NCBI GenBank assembly: GCA_035308395.1
Contig: DATGGT010000123.1
Span: 71,786 to 135,785 of the forward strand
Direction: 5' to 3'
DNA from: Terriglobales bacterium
Lineage (GTDB): Bacteria > Acidobacteriota > Terriglobia > Terriglobales > Acidobacteriaceae
Length of the DNA: 64,000 nt
The notes below the pieces were generated by a model, which had not been told where the DNA came from, searched no databases, and was given only the letters and a program-made list of their open reading frames with translations. The translations under genes and the position numbers were made by a program. This document shows, piece by piece, positions 6,861 through 51,099 of the stretch (position 1 is its first letter; each line of letters begins with the position of its first letter).

Positions 6861-8117
6861 TCAGCTTCCGATTGTATCCGCTGCCTGACGCAAAAGCGTA
6901 TTCACGTCGACCTTGATGCCCGATGGGATTCCGCCCTGCGCGAAGTCGCGCGTTCCGCCGCCGCGACCTCCAACCGAAGACAGCACCTGCTTGAGTAGCG
7001 CACCCATATCGGCAGGGTTCGGTAGAGCACCGGCAGATGCAGCAGTCTGCGCGAAGACCAATCCTGGAGGATCCACTGTGCTCGCAACAAGCGCAATCGC
7101 CGGAGTTGCGGTTCGCGTCACTTTCTGGGCAAAGAGCTTCGCAAAACCGATGTCTCGGTCGGAGAAGGTATGCATCACAACCTTGCGTCCGTTCGACAGG
7201 GCTTGCGCGTGGAGAGCCGCCAGTGCCATGGACTCGGCAAGCTGGTCTAAGGCATCTTCCCTTTGTTTGCGCAACGACTTGTTCTCGTCGATGTTCTTGC
7301 GGATTTGCTCGGGCACATCCCACAACTTGGCTGAAAAAAGCGCGGCCGCTTCGCTGAGCGACGTGTAATCACGCCTCGCCAGGCGCACCGCGCGGTCACC
7401 GCAAACGAATTCCACGCGAATTCCCTGTCGCACTTTCTCGGACTTTCGCAGGAGAATCGAGCCGATCTGACCGGTCGCTGAGACGTGGGTCCCTCCGCAC
7501 GCCGAAACATCGAAATCCTCGACTTCGACAATGCGTAACTCATCGCGCTCCGCGGACGGAGGCTTGCGCAGGCCAAGCTTCTCCGCGTCCGCCCGTGAAA
7601 CATAACGGATACGAACCGGACGATTTTCAAAAACAACCTCATTGGCCCGCTGCTCGGCTCCGATGATCTTCTCGACATTCAGCGACGGCGTGTCGAGATC
7701 AATCGAGCAGTAGTCTTCGGCCATACGAAAAGAAACGGTGTGAATCTGGTAAAGCTCGATGAAGGCTGCCGATAGAACGTGCTGCCCTGAATGCTGCTGC
7801 ATGTGTTCGCGCCGCCGGCTGGAATCGATGCTGCCGCGAACGGCCACACCAGCCACGGGCAACTTGCCCTCGACATCGAGATAATGCAACACGCGGCCAT
7901 CTTCTGCGTCGGCGACCTCGGCCACGCGCAACCTGCCCAGCCCTTCAAGAGTGAGCCATCCTGTGTCATGAACCTGCCCGCCGCTGGTTGGGTAAAACGC
8001 AGATTCGCGCAACACGACAGCCGGCCGATTCTGCTCTGGCGAGATCGGGAGCACCTCTTCGACGATCGAATCGAATTCATGCATCTTGGAATTGTCGTAA
8101 TAGAGACGCTTGGTCAT
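6861..8117 (-). CDS. alaX: Alanyl-tRNA editing protein AlaX-L (tRNA_SAD plus DHHA1)
   Basis: MTKRLYYDNSKMHEFDS..., zinc motifs HSGQHVLS and CGGTHV, C-terminal GGRGGGTRDFAQGG. Start set at the internal ATG at 8117. Confidence 0.8.
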   Translation of the reverse strand: MTKRLYYDNSKMHEFDSIVEEVLPISPEQNRPAVVLRESAFYPTSGGQVHDTGWLTLEGLGRLRVAEVADAEDGRVLHYLDVEGKLPVAGVAVRGSIDSSRRREHMQQHSGQHVLSAAFIELYQIHTVSFRMAEDYCSIDLDTPSLNVEKIIGAEQRANEVVFENRPVRIRYVSRADAEKLGLRKPPSAERDELRIVEVEDFDVSACGGTHVSATGQIGSILLRKSEKVRQGIRVEFVCGDRAVRLARRDYTSLSEAAALFSAKLWDVPEQIRKNIDENKSLRKQREDALDQLAESMALAALHAQALSNGRKVVMHTFSDRDIGFAKLFAQKVTRTATPAIALVASTVDPPGLVFAQTAASAGALPNPADMGALLKQVLSSVGGRGGGTRDFAQGGIPSGIKVDVNTLLRQAADTIGS

Positions 8118-8529
8118 GATGGGAGCAATCAATTGCGGAAAACAGGGTCGACAGACGCCGGGACTGCGACAAAAAAAGTCAGGCACCGGCGACCCACTGC
8201 ACACGAAAGAGCCCGTTACCGTTGCTTCCTTCCGGACCTGGCGGGGTTGGCGGGAAAACGTCGCGCGGAACCGATGCCTGACTCTACATATTAGCAAGGA
8301 AACTCGACGGTAGGCAGGCTAGCCGCGTAACCATTTCTATCGTAAGCTGTTACAGTCGAAGGCGCGCACCTTCCCCAGGACCAGGCGCAAAGACACAAAG
8401 ACGAATTTTGGGCTTTCGGCGAACCAGTCACTGGTAACCGCCAACCCTGCTTTTTGCATTACCGGAGTCATCCCGTAGCGGAAGCAAACTGAAAGAATTC
8501 AACGACATATCAAATATCATTGATCAGTG

Positions 8530-31939: not shown

Positions 31940-33070
31940 CTAGCGCATTTGCGCGTCGAGCGACGGACCTGCCGCCAACACCGCGAGGAGGCGCATCACC
32001 TCTTCACGCTCGACATCATCACGGAACACAAACCGCACTCCCATGCCGAATCCTGGATGCGTGGCCAGAACTTGGCCTCTGATGCGCAACTTTGTATCAG
32101 CATGTCGAACCAGAATCTCAACTCCGGCCTGCCCCGTCAGCGGAGACGGCATCTCGACATAACAGCCACCTTCGCTGATGTCAGACAATGTGCAGCGATT
32201 CGGGACGCTCGTGCCCAGGCGATAGACTTCGGCTCCAAGCTTGCACGCCATGCGCAGTTCGCCACGTCGATTGCTGGGATTGGTGACAAGCGGAGACTCT
32301 TTACCTTCGGGTATCGCGCCGCGTCGAACGTCGGACGCCACCCCCGCGGACTTGCTGGCTGGCACCTGCGCCGGCACACCTGCCGCCGGAGTGACATTAG
32401 TATTATTCTGCTGGAGCCAAGTCTGAATGAGCCGCCGTGAAGACTGGGGCACATCGACAAAGCGAATTCCCGTGCGCCCGCTTGAGTCCTGCCATGCAAC
32501 CTCACCCGACAGGCGAACCAGGGGCTGCTGGCCCGGTAGCGCAAACTCAAAATATACTTTGCATGACGAAGGCAGACGATTGGCGGTCTGGAGTGATGTT
32601 CCGCCATCGCTGAGGTCAGTCAACAGCGCGTTCACTTCCGGAGCCCCCGGATACGCAACGTTCGCCTTGGAATTAAGCGGAGTGCGGGGCGCCCGGCGGC
32701 GTTCTCGGCGCATCAGGCCGCGAGCTGCGCGCAAACTGATCCGCGTGCGCTCGGCAGAGAGCGGACGGTACAAAACGAAATTCGCACCCAAGCCAAAGAC
32801 CGGACGCGCGTTGAACTCCCCGTCGACAATCGCGATCAACATGCTGGCCCGGTTCCGTGCCGATTGTCGGAGCCGTGCCAGGAATTTCTCAGAGTCCTCG
32901 TCGGCGCGATAATCAAGAACAATCACATCAAAGCGCTGGCTCTCGAGCAACTGTAGTCCGCCGGAGACCGATGGTGTATGCTCCGCGGCCATCCCCAGTT
33001 CTGACAACACTTCCGTCAGCAGGGTCGACGACCCCTGATCCGGACACACCACGAGAGCGCGTAAGTCCAT
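31940..33070 (-). CDS. Degenerate receiver (REC) plus two PilZ domains
   Basis: REC-like N-terminus (ALVVCPDQ.., VIVLDY, LYRP). PilZ 1: RRERRRAPR..DLSDGG. PilZ 2: RRGELR..DISEGG. Both keep RxxxR and DxSxxG. Confidence 0.8.
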   Translation of the reverse strand: MDLRALVVCPDQGSSTLLTEVLSELGMAAEHTPSVSGGLQLLESQRFDVIVLDYRADEDSEKFLARLRQSARNRASMLIAIVDGEFNARPVFGLGANFVLYRPLSAERTRISLRAARGLMRRERRRAPRTPLNSKANVAYPGAPEVNALLTDLSDGGTSLQTANRLPSSCKVYFEFALPGQQPLVRLSGEVAWQDSSGRTGIRFVDVPQSSRRLIQTWLQQNNTNVTPAAGVPAQVPASKSAGVASDVRRGAIPEGKESPLVTNPSNRRGELRMACKLGAEVYRLGTSVPNRCTLSDISEGGCYVEMPSPLTGQAGVEILVRHADTKLRIRGQVLATHPGFGMGVRFVFRDDVEREEVMRLLAVLAAGPSLDAQMR

Positions 33071-33428: not shown

Positions 33429-33566
33429 CGTGGTAATCAGTTAGCGCCAGATCTCCGATCATTTGAGTCGCGGGAGATGCCGGACTGACAAGCGTTCTAG
33501 TTAGCAGCGAATTAGTTTTGATGGTTGTGTTCTAGAAGCGGAGAGACTCAATTGCAGCCAATACTT

Positions 33567-34247
33567 ATGAGAAGGCCGGTAAGAAATTCGCGGCAACGCA
33601 GGCATCGAGCGAGCGGCTTCAGCTTGATCGAAATGATGAGCGTGGTGGCGATTGGGATTGTCGTGACCGCAGTCTCCTTCATGACTCTGGTTCCGGTCAT
33701 GAACCAGCAACGCGTGAACAATGCATACAACATCACGCTGGCCGCGATGCGTCAGGCGCACGACAACGCAATGTCGCAACGCACATCCTACTCGGTAACG
33801 TTTTCTAACACGGTGACGCCGAACACCATCACCGTGGCACCCACACTCACCGGATTCGCGGGCGCGCAGAGTGCCGTGACTTATCAATTGCCGAACGGCG
33901 TCACATTTTACGCGGCCTCGGCTCTTTCTTCGGTCACGGCTCCAGACAGCGGTGCGGGGGCAAGCTTTGGCACTGGCACGCACGCGATCGATTTTGGCTA
34001 CACCGCGAACGGTGTAGGCACGGGCGGGCAAACGGTCGTTTACTTCTGTCCTGATGGTTCGGCGCAAGACGCCGAGGGCGGGGCAGGCAACTGCGCGGGC
34101 AGCTGGGATGACGGCGTTGTCTATATCGCACGTTCCACAGACCTGTTGAGTTCAAGGGCGATTTCGCTTTGGGGTGCTACCGGGCGAGTTCGAGGATGGC
34201 GTCTCTATAGCACCGGTGCATCAACCTATCAATGGAAACGGCAATGA
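33567..34247 (+). CDS. GspH/FimT-like minor pilin (prepilin-type N-terminal methylation domain)
   Basis: MRRPVRNSRQRRHRASG/FSLIEMMSVVAIGIVVTAV: class III signal peptide with G-1, F+1, E+5. Confidence 0.75.
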   Translation: MRRPVRNSRQRRHRASGFSLIEMMSVVAIGIVVTAVSFMTLVPVMNQQRVNNAYNITLAAMRQAHDNAMSQRTSYSVTFSNTVTPNTITVAPTLTGFAGAQSAVTYQLPNGVTFYAASALSSVTAPDSGAGASFGTGTHAIDFGYTANGVGTGGQTVVYFCPDGSAQDAEGGAGNCAGSWDDGVVYIARSTDLLSSRAISLWGATGRVRGWRLYSTGASTYQWKRQ

Positions 34248-34885
34248 AGATGAGGGCGACCGCTATGGCTGGATTACAGATCAGACGAAGTGCACTTCCT
34301 CGGGACCGAAGAACCGCGGAAGGCGGTTTTTCGCTGGTTGAAGTCTTGATCTCGATGGCTGTGCTAACGGTGGGGATGGTAAGTCTGCTCGGCGTCTTTG
34401 GGTTGGCAATGGCTGCCACAGAGACATCGCAGCAGGACATGATCGCCAAGCAACTTGCCAACGAATCGTACGAGAGTATCGTGACCGCGAGCAACTCGAC
34501 TCAGATCAACTGGGACGACATCAACAACGTGGGCTCGACGAACTGTCCGGACACCGGCGCGAGCAGTTGCGGAATCTTCCTGACGGGCACGCAGCCGATC
34601 AACAATGCGGGAGTCGACGGAATTTACGGAACGGCCGACGACGCCTCTGCTGGCGGACAAACTCTGCAGGACCCCGGGCCAGACGGAGTGTTCCTGACCG
34701 TGGACGACACATTCATCCCCTTGACTAACTACCAGCGCTCGATTGCGATCGCGCCGCTCTATGACGTGAACTCGGTCCTGATCTCGAACCTGCGCAGCGT
34801 GACGATCACAATGCAGTACACGACTCCTCAGAGCAAGCAACAGAAGACTTACATTCTGAATTCCTACATCTCAGAGTTCCAGTAA
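34244..34885 (+). CDS. PilV/GspI-like minor pilin
   Basis: ...RRTAEGG/FSLVEVLISMAVLTVGMVSLLGVF. ATG 34244 overlaps the upstream stop as ATGA. Confidence 0.7.
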   Translation: MKMRATAMAGLQIRRSALPRDRRTAEGGFSLVEVLISMAVLTVGMVSLLGVFGLAMAATETSQQDMIAKQLANESYESIVTASNSTQINWDDINNVGSTNCPDTGASSCGIFLTGTQPINNAGVDGIYGTADDASAGGQTLQDPGPDGVFLTVDDTFIPLTNYQRSIAIAPLYDVNSVLISNLRSVTITMQYTTPQSKQQKTYILNSYISEFQ

Positions 34886-34895
34886 AAAGGGAGTT

Positions 34896-36083
34896 ATGGG
34901 CGACCGCTTAAAAACACGCGAGAGTGGATTCAGCTTGCTGGAGATGATGATCTCTGTGGCTCTGGGCACGGTTGTGCTTGGCGCCGCGGTGCAGATCTAC
35001 AGCAAGGGAGTTGGGGCGACCTGGACGGTTTCGCAGCGAGCCGAGTTGCAGCAGGATTTTCGCGCCGCTTCCAACATGTTAACCAAGGATCTCAGCGAAG
35101 CCGGAGCGGGCCTGGGCAACAACGTCGCCATTGCGCTGCCGAGTGGAAGCACTCCGCGTTTCGGTTGCGACCAGACCAATACCTGCTACTTGAACGGCGT
35201 GGCGGGGACTTATCCTCTGCAGAGCGGCACACCCTATCTTTACGGGCTCATTCCGGGATACAACCTGGGACCGATTCTCAACGCCACCCAGGGAGCGACC
35301 GATACTGTCACGACGATATACACGGACAACAACTTCTATTTGAACTGTTATGCGGCAACCGTCACATCCGCGGGCGTGGTGACCTTTGCGCCAATCGTCA
35401 CGACTCCGGTGGCAACAGCTTGGCCTCCGCCGGGTTGCTTGCCGAACAGCAGCGTGACCTCGCCTCAAGCCGTAAACGATGCAGTGGTCGGGTTGACGCC
35501 CGGCGATCTGGTCCTGATGAACCTGAATAACTCCCCTATTGTGGGCGAAGTGACGGGCGCGGTCACGGCAACGGGAACCAACACTTACACCGTCCCCTTC
35601 GCCAAGGCCAGTTCTACGGTCGATCCTCTGAAGATGAACCAGACGCCCGCCGGTAGCGGCTTGAACGCTGCGCCGGTGGGTGCGACCGGGGCAAATCCTC
35701 AGCGCCTTCTGGTGATCACTTATTACATCGACAATACCGTGGCCCCGCCGCGATTAATGCGTCAGGTGAGCGGACATTCGCCGATTCCGGTCGCGGAAAA
35801 TGTGGCTTACATGAAATTCAGCTATGACCTCTTCAACGACGCCACCAGTTCGCCAGCGGTGAACTGCAGCAATCCAGGCGCCGCCACCGATGGCTGCAAT
35901 ACCGCCGGCGCGTCGTCTGGTCTTCTTCCGAACCAGATCACCAAGATCAATATTCTGAACATGGCGATGAACAGCACACTGATGGGCGCCCAGTACGGCA
36001 CAGGCACCGGTTATCAGCGAATGGATTTGCAAACGTCGGTAAGCGCCCGGAACCTGACCTACGCCAACAACTATCCCAATTAA
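34896..36083 (+). CDS. PilW/GspJ-like minor pilin (enlarged, 395 aa)
   Basis: MGDRLKTRESG/FSLLEMMISVALGTVVLGAAVQIY..RAELQQDFRAASNMLTKDLSEAG. Confidence 0.7.
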   Translation: MGDRLKTRESGFSLLEMMISVALGTVVLGAAVQIYSKGVGATWTVSQRAELQQDFRAASNMLTKDLSEAGAGLGNNVAIALPSGSTPRFGCDQTNTCYLNGVAGTYPLQSGTPYLYGLIPGYNLGPILNATQGATDTVTTIYTDNNFYLNCYAATVTSAGVVTFAPIVTTPVATAWPPPGCLPNSSVTSPQAVNDAVVGLTPGDLVLMNLNNSPIVGEVTGAVTATGTNTYTVPFAKASSTVDPLKMNQTPAGSGLNAAPVGATGANPQRLLVITYYIDNTVAPPRLMRQVSGHSPIPVAENVAYMKFSYDLFNDATSSPAVNCSNPGAATDGCNTAGASSGLLPNQITKINILNMAMNSTLMGAQYGTGTGYQRMDLQTSVSARNLTYANNYPN

Positions 36084-36162
36084 GGGTGGAGGGGTAGCAG
36101 AGGCACACAAGATCGAGATGAGGAACGATGCAATGGGGAACACGACCATGGGGAGTGACGGT

Positions 36163-39100
36163 ATGAAGAAAACCAGATTGCGCATCACCAGGCTGAACGT
36201 CAAAGGATTCACGCTGATTGCGTCCTTGCTGATGCTGTTGCTGATGTCGGGGATGGCGATCGGTCTGCTGATGATGGTCAACACCGAAGGCAAGGTGGGG
36301 GGAAGCGACCTGCAAAATAACGTCGCCTATCACGCCGCCGAAGGTGGAATCGAAAAGATGTACTCCGACCTCTCGGCGGTGTTTAATAACGCGCAAGCCC
36401 CGACTGCCGCCCAAATCTGCGCGGCGAGCGCCGCGGCCAACCAGCCAACGATGCCCGGAGTCACTTGGACCCAATATTCGATCATGCCCGGCTCGGCGCA
36501 AACTTCGACTTGCCCGACAACTCTGTCGACGACCTGGGGACAGATTACCGCCGGACCGAACCAGGGTTTGTATGCGCAGGTCATTCCCGTGAACATGCTG
36601 GCTACCGCGTCCCTTACGGGCGGACAGGAAGTCACCATGATCCGGCAGACGCAGGTCGCTTTGATTCCGGTATTCCAGTACGGAATGTTTTGCGAAAATG
36701 ATTGCTCAATCTTTCCTGGCGGCGGTATGACTTTCAATGGCCCCATCCATAGCAACGGTGATTTTTACCCGTACGTCGGATCGGGTGCCAACTTGACGTT
36801 TCAAGCTAAGGTGTCTGCGTTCGGCAACATTATTCGAACCGTGTTGCCCAATCTCAATTCTTCCAGCGCCAGAACTGGTAACGTCTATGTTCCGACTGCG
36901 AATAGCGCGACCGCTTGCAGCAATTCCAGCCCGAGCGCTGCGCCATCCACGGCAGCCGGAAACACGTGTACGAGTCTTGCCACGGTTGGTACCACCAATC
37001 CATGGGGAGACGGCAGCCTTCAGGGCGCTGGGGGTAATCCGGCGCAATCGAGCTACAGCAGTGTTTGGAACAACTATTCCAACACCACTCTGAACGACAT
37101 GATGATCAACGGGAACTATGGCAGCAAGACAACCAAAGGAACCGGAGCCAAAAAACTGTCTATGCCGTTCGTCAACGGCAGCAACTTCCCGTATGAAGTG
37201 ATTCGTCGCCCCAAGGGCACGGAGTCGGCTTCAACACTCCTGGGTCAATCGCGCGAATATAACATGGCCCAGATTCGCGTCCTGCTGAGCGACGATCCCG
37301 CGGAGTTCAAGAACGGTACCGGTGCGACGGATCCCGACAACGTCCGACTGGCAAACGTTGCGCAGAATTCGACCGTGGCAGGCCAGTGGGGTGTCACGAT
37401 ACCCTCGGGTAATTACAGCTCCGCGTTCGGGTCGCCGACATCCGGCACTTATAACCTCTATTTCGCGTCGGCTTCCAATGGAGTTCCCATTCCGAATGCC
37501 ACCGCTTCCACTTGCTCGGGCGAGCCTTGCTTGACGGCCGACGATTGGCCTTCTCCACCGGTGACGTGGACGAACGCCATGGCAACGGCCGCCGGAATTG
37601 CATGGATTAACCCACCTGTGCCAAGCACGGCGCCAATCTACTGGAATAACGGACCCAGCCCGACGGTTTATCTTTGTCCGCCAAACGTGACCTTCACCGC
37701 CTCGCCCTCGCCGGCTCTTCCTTCGAACTGTCCTGCGGGAGCCTATCCATACTATTCCCCGCCAAATCCAACTCTTCCCCTCGTTTCCGGGGCACTCACG
37801 CCCTACAATTCTGCATTCGACGATTCATGGAGCACCCTCGATGGGTGGCTGCGTGTGGAGTATCTGAACAACTCCGGCAACTGGGTTGCAGTAACCAACG
37901 AGTGGCTGCAATTGGGATTTGCGCGCGGTGTAACCGCACCCACTGCCAGCGTAGCAGGTCAGCCCGCCGGTGGAACTCCAAACCCCATCAATCCAAAGGC
38001 AATCTTGCTGCTTCAGGAACCAGCCGACCGCTCCACCAACGCCACTCTGATGGCTGAACCGGCGGCCACCGGTGCGATTTCTACCGGAACTCCGCCAAGT
38101 TGCACGGCTTGGACCTCGGCAGCACATACTATCTGCACCACTTGGGCTGCAGGCAATCCGCCCTTGCTTGTCTCCGATGCTGGAGCCGGCGGCGAGTGGG
38201 CATTCGGCATTACCCCCAGTGCTCCGGCGGCCGCGACAACTCCGCAGAGCCTCACGGAATACAACTGGTATCCAATCAACTTTTACGACTCGCGTGAAGG
38301 CGAGCCTCGCGATATCGATTGGTCAGGGACAACCCTGGGCGTAACGGACAACAGTTGCACAGCCAACGGCGTGATGAACGCGGTTGAGATCGATGTGGGC
38401 AACCTTGAGCAGTGGCTGTTAGGTAATACCGGCACAAGCGGAACGCTGGTGAACTCTTCGACCCAGAACGGGTACATCCTGTATTTCTCGGACCGTCGTG
38501 GCATGTTGCCGAGCAAAAACGCTGTCTCGTCTAACGCGGCCAACACAAAAACCGGAGACTCGGGGTTGGAAGACACCGTAAACTCCGGCAGCACTGCAGG
38601 GACCACCGACGGCGCGCTCGAGACAACCATGGCTGGCCACCCCAACTCTCCTGAGGACGACAACCAGAATGGCTTGCTCGACAACTGGGGCGCCTACAAC
38701 CTGGGAATGGGCTTCTATGGCACGGTGTCCAGCTCGACTCAAAACCTGAATACGAAAATCACAAGCACTGCCGTGCCAAATCCCTACGGCACCGTGGCGG
38801 CCAATGGAGGCGACCGAATCGCTCTTTGCGGCCGCACCGCCCGCAAGAATTGGGTCAGCGGCGCGCGACACGTTTTGAAACTGGTGGATGCGTCCCTAGG
38901 CAATGTGCCGTTGAGCAACACGCCGATCGTTTACAACGGCGTGACCTACAATGGCGGATTCACCGTAGCCTCGGAAAACCCGGTATATCTCCAGGGCGAT
39001 TACAATTCGAATGGTACCGACACCGCATGGAGCGCCACGCCGGTGGATCAGGCTGGAATGGCGGCATCTGCCGTGCTCGCCGATTCGGTTACTCTTCTTT

Positions 39101-39549
39101 CGAACGCCTGGGACGATCGAATCAGCATGGTCGGAGTTCCCGGCAACACTTCACCGACGCATCTGGGAAATCGCACTGCTGTCACGACCTCGTACAGGCT
39201 CGCGATTGCAGCCGGAAAAAACATGACCTTCGCGTCGCCCTCCTGGGCCACTGCAGGTAAAGATGACGTCGGCACCGACGGCGGCATTCACAACTTCCTT
39301 CACTTGCTGGAAAACTGGGGCGGAACCACCACAAACTACAAGGGATCAATGGCGAGCCTGTACTACTCGACCTACGCCACCGGCTTCTACAAGTGTTGCA
39401 ATGCTGTTTACAGCAACGGTACGCGTAACTTCTCTTTTGACGCGGACTTCAAGAATCCGGCCGGCTTGCCGCCCGGAACACCCATGTTCCGCGACGTGGA
39501 GAGCTTGGGCTATCGTCAGGTGTACGCGACGCGCTTAACCGGGCAATAG
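36163..39549 (+). CDS. Giant PilX/GspK-like pilus-tip protein (about 1130 aa)
   Basis: MKKTRLRITRLNVKG/FTLIASLLMLLLMSGMAIGLLMMVNTEGKVGGSDLQNNVAYHAAEGGIE: PilX_N-like, lacks Glu+5 as PilX/GspK do. GGAG lies 7 nt before ATG 36163; upstream in-frame ATGs reach back to 36118. Confidence 0.7.
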   Translation: MKKTRLRITRLNVKGFTLIASLLMLLLMSGMAIGLLMMVNTEGKVGGSDLQNNVAYHAAEGGIEKMYSDLSAVFNNAQAPTAAQICAASAAANQPTMPGVTWTQYSIMPGSAQTSTCPTTLSTTWGQITAGPNQGLYAQVIPVNMLATASLTGGQEVTMIRQTQVALIPVFQYGMFCENDCSIFPGGGMTFNGPIHSNGDFYPYVGSGANLTFQAKVSAFGNIIRTVLPNLNSSSARTGNVYVPTANSATACSNSSPSAAPSTAAGNTCTSLATVGTTNPWGDGSLQGAGGNPAQSSYSSVWNNYSNTTLNDMMINGNYGSKTTKGTGAKKLSMPFVNGSNFPYEVIRRPKGTESASTLLGQSREYNMAQIRVLLSDDPAEFKNGTGATDPDNVRLANVAQNSTVAGQWGVTIPSGNYSSAFGSPTSGTYNLYFASASNGVPIPNATASTCSGEPCLTADDWPSPPVTWTNAMATAAGIAWINPPVPSTAPIYWNNGPSPTVYLCPPNVTFTASPSPALPSNCPAGAYPYYSPPNPTLPLVSGALTPYNSAFDDSWSTLDGWLRVEYLNNSGNWVAVTNEWLQLGFARGVTAPTASVAGQPAGGTPNPINPKAILLLQEPADRSTNATLMAEPAATGAISTGTPPSCTAWTSAAHTICTTWAAGNPPLLVSDAGAGGEWAFGITPSAPAAATTPQSLTEYNWYPINFYDSREGEPRDIDWSGTTLGVTDNSCTANGVMNAVEIDVGNLEQWLLGNTGTSGTLVNSSTQNGYILYFSDRRGMLPSKNAVSSNAANTKTGDSGLEDTVNSGSTAGTTDGALETTMAGHPNSPEDDNQNGLLDNWGAYNLGMGFYGTVSSSTQNLNTKITSTAVPNPYGTVAANGGDRIALCGRTARKNWVSGARHVLKLVDASLGNVPLSNTPIVYNGVTYNGGFTVASENPVYLQGDYNSNGTDTAWSATPVDQAGMAASAVLADSVTLLSNAWDDRISMVGVPGNTSPTHLGNRTAVTTSYRLAIAAGKNMTFASPSWATAGKDDVGTDGGIHNFLHLLENWGGTTTNYKGSMASLYYSTYATGFYKCCNAVYSNGTRNFSFDADFKNPAGLPPGTPMFRDVESLGYRQVYATRLTGQ

Positions 39550-39593: not shown

Positions 39594-39625
39594 AACCCCG
39601 ATCCGCAAGGATCGGGGTTTTTCTT
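39594..39625 (+). terminator. Rho-independent terminator of the minor-pilin operon
   Basis: AACCCCGATCC-gcaa-GGATCGGGGTT followed by TTTCTT. Confidence 0.75.
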
Positions 39626-39683: not shown

Positions 39684-40979
39684 ATGAGTACTCAACAGTT
39701 GAACCGAGCTGACAATCGTGGGGCGAGAGGCTTGTTGGTGGTTCTGACAATATTCTCGTTAGGCCTATTTCTTATCCCGGCCTTCATCATCCGGCCGTTC
39801 ACCCATCAATCGGCCATCGGATTGCGCATTGCACTCTTCGTCAAGTGGATTGCGCCGACACTCACGCTGCTCGCCTTGTTGGGAGTCCTTGCGATCGCCT
39901 GGTCGCTCTGGCAACGGTCGTCCTGGTTGTTACGCAGCGGTATCATCACTTCCCTGCTGCTGTGTCTGGCGTCGACAGTGATGGTACAGCAGAACTACTT
40001 CGAATGGATGTTCAATCCGATCAAAGCTGCGGGATTCGTCGCACCCGGCGATTCCCACCTTGACGACAAAGAAATGGTGATGACCGTGAAGATCGGGCCG
40101 GAAGCGCGTGCGTACCCGATCGTGCAGATGGCCTACCATCACATCCTCAATGACACCGTGGCCGGCGAGCCCATCGTCGTCACCTATTGAACGCTCTGTC
40201 ACACCGGTCTGGTGTGGAAGAGAACAGCGCAGGGACGGGAACTCCATTTCTATCTCGCGGGGATCAACAATCAGAATTTCCTCATGCGCGACCGCGAAAC
40301 GGGCTCGTGGTGGCAACAGATCACAGGCCGCGCCATCTCCGGCAAACTCGCCGGTACCAGCCTCGAGTCGATGCCCAACGACGAGTTAACGTTCGGACTA
40401 TGGAAAGCGGAGTTGTCGCAAGAACACGCCCTGGTTTTGGCGCCAGTTGCCGGACACGACAAAGACTACGACAAGGGATGGGAAGCAGAAACGGAGAAGT
40501 ATCCAGTGCCCCTAAGTTTTCCCGGGCAAGGATTGAAAGATCGCGACGTGATCCTGGGAGTTCAGTTGGGTGGGCAGGCTCGCGCCTTCCCGGTAACAAA
40601 GGTTCGCGGCCAGACTCCGGTCGAAGACAAGATCTCTGGAGTTCCCCTTGTGATCGTAACTGCGCCCGACGGCGTATCCATGCGCATGTTTCGCTCGCGA
40701 TGGAACGGATCCGATATCGAGCTTTATCGCGATACGGAGACCGACGGACAATCCACTGACGAGCATAAAGCCGATGGTCAAAGCCCTGCTGGTCAAAACA
40801 CTGGTGGTCAAAGCAAAGACTTACGACTGCTCGATTCGCTCGGGAACACCTGGAACTTCAGCGGGTGCGCAACTAGCGGTCCTGCAACGGGCCAGTGTCT
40901 AGAGAAAATTAATTACGTGAAGGACTATTGGTTCGACTGGAAGAACTACAACCCGAAGACGACTGTCTACAGTCATTAG
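39684..40979 (+). CDS. DUF3179-family membrane protein with in-frame TGA at codon 169: candidate selenoprotein (UxxC), otherwise a nonsense pseudogene
   Basis: ORFs 39684..40190 and 40212..40979 share a frame. Readthrough gives ...GEPIVVTY-[TGA]-TLCHTGLVWKR..NFLMRDRETGSWWQQITG..DYWFDWKNYNP, one colinear DUF3179 protein. Confidence 0.6.
40200..40216 (+). promoter_or_regulatory. SECIS-like hairpin 9 nt downstream of TGA 40188-40190
   Basis: CACACC-GGUCU-GGUGUG: perfect 6-bp stem with a GGUCU apical loop, as in E. coli fdhF SECIS (as I recall it). Confidence 0.5.
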
Positions 40980-40989
40980 GTAGTCCATC

Positions 40990-41955
40990 TCAACGCGGCT
41001 TGCGGAGATGCGGTGCCGGTTCGTTTCCCTTTTGCGCCGTGAGATCGGGCGACGGCGGCGCGTTTACAGCCAGATCAGACGACCAGCAGTCGGCGAGAAT
41101 TTTCCACGTACCCGAAGGCTGGCGCGCCAACACTACCATGTATTTTCCGCGCTCCTCGCGACGTTTTCCCATGGCGACGGGAACCAGCATTTTGCAGCGG
41201 CCTAGATCGAGAGCGATTTCTCCCATCACTTCGAGGCGGAGCGATTCCATCTCCACATCGCCCAACCCGGCTTCAAGCACGGAAACAAGAAACTCCCGGA
41301 TCGCCGGAAGACTCCGCACCGGAGGAATGCTGGACCGTATAACAGTCGCATCCGCAGCATAAAGTTCCAGCAAATCGTCGATGTGTTTTGTGTTGCAGGC
41401 ATGCGCCCAGTCTTTCACCACCTGGCGAGCACCGGCTTCTGCCCTTCCACCGGTCGAAGATCCTGTCGAACCAGAGCTCGCTGAAGCTGGAGCCCGTCCG
41501 CGCGGTGCCGTCGACCCAGCTTCGGCACGAGGCGCCACGGACACGCGTCCCTGCGCTGGGACAATGTGATGATAGTGGTGATGAATGTGATGTTGACCCG
41601 CGCCGGCCTGAAGCGGCACCGCAGCCTCGCCAGTCGGTGGGTGAGTCGCTATACCGCACCAGACGCAAAAGCGCGCGCTCGCAGGTAGCGCACCTCCGCA
41701 GGAAGAACACTCATCAACCGCATCTCCCGGATCTCCCCCATCTCGAGGCCCGGCCGATTCACCGGGGTCAGCTAGATCCGATGCCGCACCGCCCGAAATG
41801 CGGTGGATCGCCTCCACGGCCGCCGCGACCGCTTCCGCGTTCGGCTTGGGCCAGTGAAAGCTCCCAGGCAGCCGCTGGAACAATTCCTCGATCTGATTGC
41901 CCTCGACGGGCGCGTCCTCCTCCGTGCGGGGAGGGTCCGGTTTATTTGCCGCCAT
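40990..41955 (-). CDS. Zinc-ribbon, His-rich segment, SnoaL/DUF4440-like (NTF2 fold) protein
   Basis: CSSCGGALPASARFCVWCG, QHHIHHHYHHI, then VVKDWAHACNTKHIDDLLELYAADATV...GKYMVVLARQPSGTWKILADCW. Start is ATG 41955 or 41964. Confidence 0.6.
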   Translation of the reverse strand: MAANKPDPPRTEEDAPVEGNQIEELFQRLPGSFHWPKPNAEAVAAAVEAIHRISGGAASDLADPGESAGPRDGGDPGDAVDECSSCGGALPASARFCVWCGIATHPPTGEAAVPLQAGAGQHHIHHHYHHIVPAQGRVSVAPRAEAGSTAPRGRAPASASSGSTGSSTGGRAEAGARQVVKDWAHACNTKHIDDLLELYAADATVIRSSIPPVRSLPAIREFLVSVLEAGLGDVEMESLRLEVMGEIALDLGRCKMLVPVAMGKRREERGKYMVVLARQPSGTWKILADCWSSDLAVNAPPSPDLTAQKGNEPAPHLRKPR

Positions 41956-41983
41956 AGCTAACATTGTAGGAGAAAATCGCTCG

Positions 41984-42430
41984 CTAGTGGATGCTGAATC
42001 TGACCAGCGCTTCCGCGTCTGTGGGAACACCGTTGCAGAGGGCAGGGCGATAACGCCAGTAGCGCACGGCCCGCAGCACAGCGAGATCCTCATCGGCACC
42101 GCCGCTGTCGAGGACGAAGGCGCTGTGAACGCGTCCGTCGGCTCCAACAATAAAGCTGACTCGCACCTTTAAGTCATCGCTCTGCGCATGGAGAAGCGGG
42201 TCTGGAGTGAGCAAGGCCTCGGGCGGACGAACGTCTCCACATTTCGCCAGCGCGAGCGGCTCCGAAACAGGCGCAAACTCGGAAATATGCGCCGGAACGC
42301 GACCGAGTTTCTTTTCCATTTGCGCGAGCGGAGTACGCTGCGGAACCGAGGTTGAAGCAGGGAGAGCGGCTGACCATGCCACGACGCTACCGATCGCGAT
42401 CGACGACAAAATCAACGATGTCATCGTCAT
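41984..42430 (-). CDS. TonB C-terminal domain protein (short, signal-anchored)
   Basis: MTMTSLILSSIAIGSVVAWSA..., then LLTPDPLLHAQSDDLKVRVSFIVGADGRVHSAFVLDSGGADEDLAVLRAVRYWRYRPALCNG. Confidence 0.6.
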   Translation of the reverse strand: MTMTSLILSSIAIGSVVAWSAALPASTSVPQRTPLAQMEKKLGRVPAHISEFAPVSEPLALAKCGDVRPPEALLTPDPLLHAQSDDLKVRVSFIVGADGRVHSAFVLDSGGADEDLAVLRAVRYWRYRPALCNGVPTDAEALVRFSIH

Positions 42431-42763
42431 TGTCAACGTGGCGAACGAAGCCCTACGCGTTGCGATTGTTCTCGGCCAGAGACAAAGCATCGGTTTCGTC
42501 GGGGCAATCCGCGTTCCCATTTCCGGAAGACAATAACACACTTATTATCATTACGTTACCGTCCTGATTTCGTTTAGAGGATCCAGAACGGATGCAATTG
42601 GTTGCAGACGAAATGAACAAAGGGGTGACCGTACACCAAGTGAACGGAGTCGAAGTGAAGAAAAACAGGTGGGAGTTCAGAACCGCTGCCAAATGCAACC
42701 CGTCGCCGCCCCCCTGCCGCGGACCATCTCCGCGACAGGAATCGGATCGTGTGCCAACCGCCG

Positions 42764-47148: not shown

Positions 47149-48546
47149 TTACCCGTGTCCCCCGGTGAGTTCGCGCACGATACTTCCGACAAACGCCTTG
47201 GCATCTCCAAATAACATGAGCGTGTTATCCAGGTAGTAAAGCGGGTTATCGATGCCGGCGAAGCCCGGGCTCATGCCGCGTTTGATGACCATGACGGTGC
47301 GGGCCTTGTCGACATCGAGGATCGGCATCCCGTAGATCGGGCTCGAGGCATCGGAACGGGCCGCCGGGTTGGTGACATCGTTTGCGCCGATTACAAGCGC
47401 GACATCGGTCTGCGGGAAGTCGCCGTTGATCTCATCCATCTCAATCAGGCGATCGTAGGGAATGTCGGATTCCGCGAGAAGCACATTCATGTGACCGGGC
47501 ATGCGTCCGGCAACCGGGTGAATGGCAAAGCGGACGTCCACTCCGCGCTTGGTGAGAGCGTCGTAGAGTTCGCGAACCTTGTGCTGCGCCTGCGCAACCG
47601 CCATGCCGTACCCAGGAACGACGATGACGCGGCTGGCCGCCGTGAGCAGTGCGGCGGCTTCTTCCGGCGTCGCGCTTTTAACAGGCTTCGCTTCTTCCCC
47701 GGAGGCAGCCGCGGTCTGCACTTGACCGAAGGCCCCGAACAAGACGTTGGTGAAGGAACGATTCATCGCCTTCGACATGATGATCGAGAGAATAAGACCC
47801 GACGATCCATCGAGAGCGCCAGCGATAATCAGCAACTTACTGTCGAGAACGAAGCCCATGGCCGCGGCCGACAAGCCCGCATAGCCATTCAACAACGAGA
47901 TGACGGTCGGCATGTCGGCGCCGCCGATCGGGATAATCAAGAGCACACCGAACGCCAGCGCGATCAGCACCATGAACGGAAACAACGAGCGCGCCCCCGG
48001 ATTCATGACCAGGGAGACGGCGATCACCAGCGCGGCGCCGAGGAGCAGGAAGTTAACGAGATTTTGTCCTTTATAGGTCAACGGCCGCTGCGGGAGGATC
48101 TCCTGCAATTTCCCGGCAGCCATCAAGCTCCCGGTAATCGTCAGTCCGCCAAGAATAACCTCTAGCGACAACACCGCCATCATGAAACGTGAGATGTCAG
48201 GTGTCCGCAGATAAAATTCGGCGGAGCCCACAAGCGTGACGCAGAGCGCTCCAAAAGCGTGACTGAGCGCGGTTCGCTGCGGCACTGCTGTCATCGCCAC
48301 TCGTCCAAGCGGAACGCCGATGATGGTACCAAGCACAAGCGCAATCGCGATCAGGCGGTAGTCGACGATTCCGTGATGCAGCAGGGTGCCGCAAATCGCC
48401 AGCAACATCCCTATTTCGCCCGCCCAGATACCGTGGCGAGCCGTGGTGGGCGAACTCATCCACTTCAGCGAGAGGATGAACAACACGCTGGCAATGAGAT
48501 AGAGAATCTCAATAACGATCTGACTTCCCGCAAGTTCTGGAGTCAT
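47149..48546 (-). CDS. pntB: NAD(P) transhydrogenase subunit beta
   Basis: Polytopic N-terminus plus dIII domain (VPGYGMAVAQAQH..., HPVAGRMPGHMNVLLAE, GANDVTNPAA). Confidence 0.9.
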   Translation of the reverse strand: MTPELAGSQIVIEILYLIASVLFILSLKWMSSPTTARHGIWAGEIGMLLAICGTLLHHGIVDYRLIAIALVLGTIIGVPLGRVAMTAVPQRTALSHAFGALCVTLVGSAEFYLRTPDISRFMMAVLSLEVILGGLTITGSLMAAGKLQEILPQRPLTYKGQNLVNFLLLGAALVIAVSLVMNPGARSLFPFMVLIALAFGVLLIIPIGGADMPTVISLLNGYAGLSAAAMGFVLDSKLLIIAGALDGSSGLILSIIMSKAMNRSFTNVLFGAFGQVQTAAASGEEAKPVKSATPEEAAALLTAASRVIVVPGYGMAVAQAQHKVRELYDALTKRGVDVRFAIHPVAGRMPGHMNVLLAESDIPYDRLIEMDEINGDFPQTDVALVIGANDVTNPAARSDASSPIYGMPILDVDKARTVMVIKRGMSPGFAGIDNPLYYLDNTLMLFGDAKAFVGSIVRELTGGHG

Positions 48547-48860
48547 TATTTCGCCGCCGTTTTGGCCGCGGGGCGGCTTGATTTGAACATCTTCAACATA
48601 CGATCTGTAATCAGGAAGCCGCCGACGATGTTGCTTGTAGCGGCGACCACCGCAATGAATCCAAAGACAGCTGAGAGCGTGGTCTTATGCTCGCCGACGA
48701 GTATGATCGCGCCGACCACCGCGATCGCATCCAAAGCATTGGTCAGCGACATCAACGGAGTATGCAGCAGCGGCGAAACCCGCCGGATTACTTCAAATCC
48801 GATGAATCCAGCGAGCACAAATATAAAAAGTGCGTTGATCAGATTCGAACTGCTATTCAT
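48546..48860 (-). CDS. pntAB: NAD(P) transhydrogenase subunit alpha, membrane part 2
   Basis: 104-aa three-helix protein: FVLAGFIGFEVIRRVSPLLHTPLMSLTNA. Its stop overlaps the pntB ATG by 1 nt. Confidence 0.85.
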   Translation of the reverse strand: MNSSSNLINALFIFVLAGFIGFEVIRRVSPLLHTPLMSLTNALDAIAVVGAIILVGEHKTTLSAVFGFIAVVAATSNIVGGFLITDRMLKMFKSSRPAAKTAAK

Positions 48861-48902
48861 CTTCCCTCTTTCCTAAGTCCGATCACCCTGAAGTCTGTTC
48901 GC

Positions 48903-50075
48903 TCAGCTTTGATTGACCAGTGCCGGCAAGGCAAGGAATTCGCGGACCCGAGCCTGCACGATCTCTCCTCCGCGAGTCAGCAGAGTCTCGCGAACAATTT
49001 CGTCTTCGAGATGGAGATTCAACTTTTGATCTTTGATCAAGTGAGTCAGAAACGCGGTGATGTTGCGCGCATACATCATGCTCGAGTGATAGGGCACGCC
49101 AGACGCCAGGTTGACGGCTCCGATTATCGTCACGCCGTGCTTGACTACGGTCTTGCCGGCTTCGGTGATCTCGCAGTTCCCTCCACGCTCAGCAGCTAGA
49201 TCGACGATTACCGAGCCGTGGCTCATTCCCTTGACCATGTCTTCCGTCACAAGGACTGGCGACTTCTTTCCGGGAATCACAGCCGCCGTGATGACAACGT
49301 CGCTTTCTTGTACAGCTTTTCCGAGCAATTCGCGCTGCCGGCGGTAGAAGTCTTCGTCCTGTGCGCGAGCGTATCCGCGCGCATCCTGCGCATCTTTGGC
49401 CTCGATGGGCAGTTCGACAAAACGGGCGCCGAGGCTCTGCACTTGTTCCTTGGCTGCCGGCCTCACGTCATAGGCGGAGATCACCGAGCCAAGGCGGCGA
49501 GAGGTCGCGATGGCCTGCAGGCCGGCGACGCCGCAGCCAATCACAAACACGCGAGCGGGAGTCACGGTCCCGGCCGCGGTCGTGAGCATGGGGAAGATGC
49601 GTGGGCTGTTGTCGGCCGCCATCAACACCGCTTTATATCCGCTGGCGGTTGCCATGGAAGAAAGGGCATCCATGCTCTGCGCCCGAGTCGTGCGCGGCAT
49701 CAACTCCACCGAAAATGAGGTGACGCCGGCGGCCGCAATCTGCTCGAGAACTTCCTTCAGCCCGAAGGGTCGCAGAAAACCAACCAGCATCTGATCGCGG
49801 CGGAACAACGGCACATCCTGCCTGCCAGTGAGATCATTGGCGCCGTAGCAGAGGACTTGCACAATCACGTCGGCAGCAGCAAATACAGCAGCGCGATCAG
49901 GACTGATCTTCGCGCCCTTGTCGGCATAGAGCGAGTCGATGTAGCCCGCCTCAACTCCAGCCCCTGATTGTATGTGGACTTCGAAACCAGCTTTGGTCAG
50001 CGTCGGGACGACGGACGGCACCAACGCAACCCGCCGTTCTCCCGGGTAGATCTCTTTCGGCACACCGATGATCAA
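48903..50075 (-). CDS. pntAA: NAD(P) transhydrogenase subunit alpha part 1 (dI); TTG start
   Basis: (M)IIGVPKEIYPGERRVALVP..., Rossmann VFVIGCGVAGLQAIATSRRLG. AGGGA lies upstream of TTG 50075. Confidence 0.9.
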   Translation of the reverse strand: MIIGVPKEIYPGERRVALVPSVVPTLTKAGFEVHIQSGAGVEAGYIDSLYADKGAKISPDRAAVFAAADVIVQVLCYGANDLTGRQDVPLFRRDQMLVGFLRPFGLKEVLEQIAAAGVTSFSVELMPRTTRAQSMDALSSMATASGYKAVLMAADNSPRIFPMLTTAAGTVTPARVFVIGCGVAGLQAIATSRRLGSVISAYDVRPAAKEQVQSLGARFVELPIEAKDAQDARGYARAQDEDFYRRQRELLGKAVQESDVVITAAVIPGKKSPVLVTEDMVKGMSHGSVIVDLAAERGGNCEITEAGKTVVKHGVTIIGAVNLASGVPYHSSMMYARNITAFLTHLIKDQKLNLHLEDEIVRETLLTRGGEIVQARVREFLALPALVNQS

Positions 50076-51023: not shown

Positions 51024-51099
51024 TGGTGAGCGCGGCAGGATTCGAACCTGCGACCCACGCCTTAAAAGGGCGTTGCTCTACCACCTGAGCTACGCGCCC
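51024..51099 (-). tRNA. tRNA-Lys (anticodon UUU), CCA encoded
   Basis: GGGCGCGTAGCTCAGGTGGTAGAGCAACGCCCTTTTAAGGCGTGGGTCGCAGGTTCGAATCCTGCCGCGCTCACCA. Folded by hand: 7-bp acceptor stem, anticodon loop CTTTTAA, TTCGAAT T-loop. Confidence 0.9.

Follow-up and report, generated by a model that had tools for sequence, protein, structure and literature searches.

Proteins with a DUF3179 domain were catalogued as a UxxC/T selenoprotein family in 2022 and again in 2026 (PMC9312934, PMC13188914), with U denoting selenocysteine (Sec), and both catalogues credit Zhang and Gladyshev 2007 (PMC1976440) for the DUF3179 selenoprotein. A reference member of the family, MDJ0986319.1 (...AVTF-U-PLTQTG...), is given in the supplement of PMC12013277, and the same paper lists three known selenoprotein genes for the acidobacterium Occallatibacter riparius (PMC12013277). 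Acidobacteria had been recorded with three selenoprotein families in 2006 (PMC1794560), and Sec-type hydrogenases have been described from Acidobacteriota (PMC13582414). At the RNA level, the described element most like the one treated here is the selenocysteine insertion sequence (SECIS) of Escherichia coli fdhF, in which the TGA is followed by 18 nt (CAC GGC CCA TCG GTT GCA) and then by GGTCT, the sequence continuing as GGT CTG CAC C. In the loop of this fdhF element, a G and then a U are the positions bound by SelB in E. coli. Here we describe a locus in 64,000 nt of contig DATGGT010000123.1 from a Terriglobales bacterium (Acidobacteriota; this whole stretch is called the window below). Sequence comparisons indicate, with a probability that we put at roughly 0.9, that positions 39684-40979 form a single gene, that its product is a membrane-anchored DUF3179 protein, and that UGA 40188-40190 within it is recoded to Sec. 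Because DUF3179 proteins are already catalogued as selenoproteins, the kind of system is known; what is new is modest, namely that Acidobacteriota have a large Sec clade that is monophyletic and combines an anchor of about three N-terminal helices, a UxxC-His motif, and an unusually frozen SECIS.

Aligned with the window protein, MDJ0986319.1 is 31% identical (E 1e-32), with Sec aligned on Sec. The two proteins share PF11376, the same Sec column (VTF-U-PLT in the reference, VTY-U-TLC in the window), and two duplicated beta modules, but the N-terminus of the reference resembles a signal peptide and its motif is UxxT with Gln after it, whereas the acidobacterial clade has the roughly three-helix anchor and UxxC-His. 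Cys-form proteins (e.g., of Tunturibacter/Tunturiibacter) have the same architecture and length as the window protein and, apart from the first residue of the U/CxxC motif, the same segment Y-[C/U]-T-L-C-H-T-G-L-V-W. They differ in being approximately 40-55% identical, in forming a separate sister clade, in having TGC/TGT at the site, and in leaving the downstream codons unconstrained. The acidobacterial Cys homologues are named "DUF3179 domain-containing (seleno)protein" at NCBI, and among the close database matches listed, the acidobacterial Sec clade itself appears as fragments only.

At the locus, two open reading frames (ORFs), 39684..40190 with an ATG start and 40212..40979 with a GTG start, lie in the same frame and are separated by the TGA and seven sense codons (ACG CTC TGT CAC ACC GGT CTG). 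Read through, they make a forward-strand gene of 431 sense positions closed by a TAG stop (Table 1), the N-terminus of which lines up with the N-termini of full-length Cys homologues. With Cys put at the TGA, the merged translation matches PF11376 at E 6e-60 and 203.6 bits (cut-off 27) over residues 123-426 and profile positions 19-292 of 292, with the TGA inside the match. Each half of the split gene also matches PF11376 alone, and the public gene call consists of two pieces of 150 and 255 aa that both carry the match. NCBIfam models gave no match to the window protein or to its Cys homologues. Every one of 14 full-length homologues and 80 Cys-form loci carries Cys at the TGA column, and the resulting U-T-L-C motif is directly followed by an invariant His. 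An earlier note on this DNA, written from its letters, had claimed two in-frame ORFs parted by TGA and seven codons with a 431-codon read-through, a second ORF with neither ATG nor Shine-Dalgarno sequence, N-terminal transmembrane helices, DUF3179 membership, and a TGA at codon 169 on the first Cys of a CxxC pair. The sequence, the PF11376 match across the TGA, and the invariant Cys column bear these claims out, as do, for the helices, hydrophobic stretches in the translation together with three helices in the AlphaFold model of the Cys homologue P0085. The C-P-L-C that the note gave for this position did not hold, since the nearest Cys homologues read V-T-Y-C-T-L-C.

Table 1. Features of the DUF3179 locus, in window coordinates.
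Feature	Position	Strand	Remarks
Terminator-like hairpin and T run	39594..39619	+	11-bp stem, 7 G-C pairs, then TTTCTT
Complete predicted DUF3179 selenoprotein gene	39684..40979	+	Sec at 169; TAG at 40977-40979
Predicted N-terminal membrane anchor, about three hydrophobic helices (approximately residues 15-101)	39726..39986	+	Boundaries approximate, topology predicted
Tyr168 codon TAT directly 5' of the UGA	40185..40187	+	TAT in 81/81
In-frame TGA, putatively read as Sec (U169), first residue of U-T-L-C	40188..40190	+	
Downstream DUF3179 part (262 codons) with C395/C405 pair and KDYWFDW C-terminal motif	40191..40976	+	
Cys172 codon TGT, second residue of UxxC	40197..40199	+	TGT 78, TGC 3 among 81
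SECIS-like hairpin	40199..40217	+	7-bp stem (U.G plus CACACC/GGUGUG), loop GGUCU

The public gene call would correspond to a locus in which the UGA is a true stop and two products are made, a membrane protein of 168 residues and a soluble protein of 255 residues re-initiating at GTG 40212. This is what the gene caller's split into 150 and 255 aa suggests, GTG is a legal start codon, and among the matches listed in a protein search, about 70 close relatives (60-100% identity) are all C-terminal fragments of approximately 240-255 aa, cut by gene callers at one same place, with full-length forms appearing only from about 40% identity. Such a split, however, would run through a single conserved CxxC site and through the Pfam domain, and the relatives in the Cys clade are all single polypeptides. 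GTG 40212 sits in the 3' arm of the hairpin stem described below, with no Shine-Dalgarno sequence before it. In addition, the codons for Thr170 and Leu171, which lie between TGA and GTG, vary synonymously among the Sec forms while their amino acids are kept, which argues that this stretch is translated in frame under protein-level selection. We therefore regard two separate products as very unlikely.

Orthologues were scanned with one genome per species, and 80 loci of 46-89% identity were fetched, giving 81 genes with that of the window. Nearly all of the 80 come from Acidobacteriota metagenome-assembled genomes (MAGs) assigned to Terriglobales, Acidobacteriaceae, or Candidatus Sulfotelmatobacter. 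All 81 genes have TGA at the column, never TGC/TGT or another stop, and ...VTY-TGA-TLCHTGLVW... is read in the 80 orthologues as in the window. The frames are open on both sides of the TGA, the downstream ORF over 235-319 codons in 81/81 genes, and 77 of the 80 orthologues have no other frame disruption. The Sec forms make up one clade with pairwise identities down to 52%, so the TGA has been retained for a long time. Three Sec-form loci (L047, L050, and L080) lie in MAGs that are labelled not as Acidobacteriota but as Candidatus Binatus, Deferrimicrobiaceae, and Verrucomicrobiia, which could reflect mis-binning or horizontal transfer of the Sec-form gene with its SECIS.

These counts bear on two further explanations of the TGA. 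In metagenome contigs, a pseudogene with a nonsense mutation, or a sequencing error in a TGC or TGT codon, typically shows itself as a lone in-frame stop, and the frame disruptions seen in 3/80 relatives would fit such decay. Against this stand the same TGA in 81 assemblies made independently, in different studies and on different sequencing platforms, the strong protein-level conservation on both sides of it, and the monophyly of a Sec clade that diverges to 52% identity; nor would a pseudogene hold a 19-nt block invariant at synonymous sites, as described below. A pseudogene or error is thus hardly credible here. Reassignment of TGA to a sense codon throughout the genome, as in genetic codes 4 or 25, has nothing in its favor beyond the single in-frame TGA itself, and we consider its probability close to negligible: TGA closes 12 of the window's 40 long ORFs and, among the 81 DUF3179 genes, 18, and is therefore a normal stop codon in these genomes.

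A hairpin begins 9 nt past the TGA, with its loop 15 nt past it. CACACC (40200-40205) pairs with GGTGTG (40211-40216) around the loop GGTCT (40206-40210), with a fold energy of -7.7 kcal/mol, or -9.5 kcal/mol with the added U.G pair at the base between G 40217 and U 40199, the third base of the Cys172 codon. As a single sequence the 17-mer is only modestly unusual (z = -2.2; 3/200 shuffles as stable), and the fold of its 63-nt context is not unusual (z = -0.15); judged across the related genes, the evidence for the hairpin is far beyond chance. An RNAalifold consensus retained the 7-bp stem and GGUCU loop only, in which the one variable stem position (40199/40217) is always paired, as U.G in 67/70 and as C-G in 3/70 distinct sequences. 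An extended SECIS with the lower stem CUCU/AGAG, present in the window, was rejected because relatives do not keep the lower stem. Around the hairpin, Rfam gave no family that matched it, only a chance snoRNA match (E 4.8).

Like the fdhF SECIS, the window hairpin is short, lies in the coding sequence directly 3' of the UGA, and has an apical GGUCU in the same GGU CUG phase. It differs in that the loop starts 15 instead of 18 nt past the UGA, and in being a perfect helix of 6-7 bp with no conserved lower stem, whereas fdhF has a bulged U. The fdhF 17-mer is also less stable (-4.2 vs. -7.7 kcal/mol), and the fdhF host protein is unrelated to DUF3179. The bacterial SECIS model quoted in PMC13188914 has a loop of 3-9 nt, an upper stem of 4-16 bp, G in the first two loop positions, a minimum free energy of at most -7.5 kcal/mol, and a UGA-to-loop distance of 16-37 nt. 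The hairpin described here has a loop of 5 nt, a stem of 6-7 bp, GG at the loop start, and -7.7 or -9.5 kcal/mol.

Support for a role of this RNA comes from codon usage. A 19-nt block, CACACCGGTCTGGTGTGGA (40200-40218), is identical in 81/81 Sec-form sequences, synonymous positions included. Across 120 conserved degenerate codon columns the mean codon entropy is 1.17 bits, and only six columns have one codon in all 81 genes, namely Tyr168 (TAT) and the hairpin residues His173 (CAC), Thr174 (ACC), Gly175 (GGT), Leu176 (CTG), and Val177 (GTG). The GGT that is fixed at Gly175 is rare elsewhere, with 1-7 of 81 genes using it at the remaining Gly columns listed. As a control, codons were counted in those 70 of 80 Cys-form relatives from metagenomes that have CTLCH[T/S]G. 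The Cys-form loci encode the same peptide, CTLCH(T/A)GLVW, yet all of their hairpin codons are variable: His is CAC 32 / CAT 38, Thr uses four codons, Gly is GGG 35 / GGA 21 / GGC 9 / GGT 5, Leu is CTG, TTG, CTT, or CTC, and Val uses all four codons. In ten further Cys-form loci the Thr is replaced by Ala, which never occurs in Sec forms. Since the codons are frozen in the Sec forms and free in the Cys forms, the constraint acts on the RNA and is tied to the TGA. The Tyr codon before the site is likewise mixed in Cys forms (TAT 26 / TAC 44), as are other Tyr columns, and the fixed TAT before the UGA may be a context signal or requirement for recoding.

The earlier note had further proposed a perfect hairpin CACACC-GGUCU-GGUGUG at 40200-40216, 9 nt after the TGA, with the apical GGUCU of fdhF at 15 instead of 18 nt, and on these grounds programmed Sec insertion over a nonsense pseudogene. 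The hairpin is present as described, and the fdhF sequence has GGTCT after 18 nt in the same phase. Its suggestion to look in related genomes for TGC/TGT or TGA, for a conserved hairpin, and for further frame disruptions returned TGA with an invariant hairpin in 80 other genomes and an otherwise intact frame in 77 of them. The suggested test by folding or a SECIS predictor came out favorably for loop, stem, G, and energy and borderline for spacing (15 vs. 16-37 nt). Programmed Sec insertion is thus supported by the TGA in 81/81 genes, the Cys column, and the frozen hairpin.

Several results weigh against Sec insertion. The distance from the A of the UGA to the first loop base is 15 nt, 1 nt under the 16-37 nt of the model, although the value varies with how one counts, falls out of range by 1 nt at most, and would be 18 for fdhF by the same count. 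The stem is essentially invariant and for that reason offers no compensatory double changes, so that its pairing is backed by one one-sided change only. Frame disruptions occur in the N-terminal part of 3/80 orthologues, with a pair of in-frame stops suggestive of a compensated frameshift in L013 and one frame change each in L024 and L026; L003 moreover has no ATG/GTG/TTG at the expected start. These are probably errors of MAG assembly, the alternative being real decay. No conserved functional partner gene surrounds the Sec-form or the Cys-form loci. Finally, tblastn with E. coli SelA, SelB, and SelD (NC_000913.3) and ARAGORN and Rfam searches for tRNA-Sec recovered no selA, selB, selD, or tRNA-Sec from the 64 kb of the window or from the flanks (10 kb) of the 80 orthologues; little follows from this for the remainder of the genome. 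A scan of 2 Mb of acidobacterial DNA for further selenoprotein genes (TGA plus a hairpin with a GGUC loop) returned six weak candidates that look like chance.

With the Sec machinery not seen in the window or the orthologue flanks, the UGA might be recoded with help of the hairpin but receive Cys or another residue. The donor would be a suppressor resembling tRNA(Sec), either an allo-tRNA or a tRNA(Cys) of the selC* type, that works together with SelB. Acidobacteria have allo-tRNAs of this kind, which may suppress nonsense codons, and in other phyla UGA may be read by selC* tRNA(Cys) (PMC5389517); the occurrence of the former in Acidobacteria is why we keep a small probability for insertion of something other than Sec. 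However, none of the loci examined had an allo-tRNA nearby, the curated catalogue entry of the family takes the same column as Sec, and encoding Cys by UGA and a constrained hairpin would bring no evident gain over the TGC/TGT of the sister clade. Insertion of another residue is therefore quite unlikely, and Sec remains the preferred residue. For Sec insertion, we infer that a ribosome arriving at the UGA would meet the downstream hairpin (7-bp stem, GGUCU) bound by SelB carrying Sec-tRNA(Sec), and that SelB would deliver Sec in competition with release factor 2. The product would have a U-T-L-C site where the paralogous Cys clade has C-T-L-C.

The architecture of the protein was examined through the AlphaFold model of P0085 (predicted local distance difference test score, pLDDT, 88.7), which has helices at 2-38, 47-78, and 84-103 followed by two beta-rich modules. 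A conserved IRPFxxQ motif lies between anchor helices 1 and 2. The DUF3179 domain (window 40029-40976, residues ~118-430) is an internal duplication, which BLAST picks up as a match between residues 284-430 and the first module of another family member. The U/CxxC motif occurs in the first beta module only, between two of its strands in the P0085 model, and a separate, nearly invariant pair of Cys residues (C395, C405) lies in the second module, downstream of the Sec codon. Given the signal-peptide-like N-terminus of MDJ0986319.1, the DUF3179 domain is probably extracytoplasmic, with the helices as its membrane anchor.

The selenol is most likely the attacking residue of a UxxC redox pair, a metal ligand being less likely. 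In MDJ0986319.1 the second Cys and the His are replaced by Thr and Gln. This speaks against a metal cluster being obligatory and points to the first Cys/Sec as a catalytic redox residue of the CxxC/CxxT type. A thioredoxin-fold CxxC oxidoreductase was considered and rejected, with the motif placed between beta strands in the model and no thioredoxin fold among the Foldseek matches listed or in Pfam; the protein may still work through a redox pair of the UxxC type. The best Foldseek matches of the P0085 model in the PDB were Rieske [2Fe-2S] domains (arsenite oxidase small subunit AioB, PetC3, and b6f Rieske), with E 0.03-0.3, TM-scores of 0.4-0.6 on the target over ~80-128 residues, and probability up to 1.0. 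The order His-His ... Cys-x-x-Cys-His loosely recalls the Rieske CxH ... CxxH ligands, but the window motif is HH ... CxxCH and not the Rieske ligand pattern. Membership of the Rieske [2Fe-2S] family was rejected, given no Pfam Rieske match even at E <= 10, the different ligand pattern, and the weak fold match, which serves as a lead only. We consider it unlikely that Sec is instead a ligand of a metal or iron-sulfur center together with His152/His153, Cys172, and His173 in a Rieske-like beta module; if true, it would be a new type of extracytoplasmic selenium-metal site at the membrane's outer face, widespread in peat and soil Acidobacteriota. A sequence search against solved structures gave no match. 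In a fold search of a viral library, an uncharacterised Indivirus (giant-virus) protein matched the P0085 model (E 8e-8).

Upstream of the DUF3179 gene, window positions 33522-39549 hold three genes encoding type IV pilin-like (N-terminal methylation) motifs and then a 1143-aa protein without Pfam match, and a PilZ/receiver-like gene lies at 31940-33070 (-). The pilin-like cluster ends at the terminator-like hairpin with its T run, from which we conclude that the DUF3179 gene probably begins a transcription unit of its own. Downstream and convergent, a gene at 40990-42150 (-) has a C-terminal SnoaL-like/DUF4440 domain behind a long low-complexity N-terminal part; after it comes a small gene, at 41984-42541 (-), that encodes a TonB_C domain. 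Next to the Sec-form genes are the type IV pilin-like cluster, kept in synteny with DUF3179 across 36-64 of 80 related genomes, and the SnoaL-like gene, which is beside DUF3179 in 56/80 loci. No neighbor gene occurs in more than 18/80 Cys-form loci. We read the conserved neighbors as synteny and not as a functional link. Within 3 kb of the DUF3179 gene, 15 of the 80 Cys-form loci (L085-L164) have an AhpD/CMD-like ORF with a C-Y-F-C motif; AhpD-like proteins are a known selenoprotein family, in Occallatibacter included (PMC12013277).

Elsewhere in the window, the NAD(P) transhydrogenase genes, encoding the PntB beta subunit and the AlaDh/PNT alpha subunit, lie at 47149-50075 (-), and a tRNA-Lys(UUU) lies at 51024-51099 (-). 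The same tRNA-Lys is found ~8-10 kb downstream of the DUF3179 gene in L005, L017, L019, L024, and L026. A bacterial small signal recognition particle (SRP) RNA was detected at 8180-8277 (-) with 65 bits; the ORF 6861..8297 (-) overlaps it and may be over-extended.

The main value of these results lies in annotation repair and in a SECIS data set; they add no new kind of system and do not reveal the role of DUF3179. Gene callers routinely split the DUF3179 Sec gene in soil Acidobacteriota, and a rule of TAT-TGA, 9 nt, and then CACACCGGTCTGGTGTG would mend gene annotation in at least 81 species-level Acidobacteriota genomes. With their hairpin unchanged throughout, the fdhF loop one codon nearer the UGA, and the codon before the UGA fixed, the 81 genes provide a natural data set for SelB recognition and UGA context. 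The Terriglobia clade that carries the gene, mostly MAGs of uncultured bacteria and many of them from peat or soil, appears to depend on selenium, and the DUF3179 Sec gene would accordingly be a marker of the Sec trait there.

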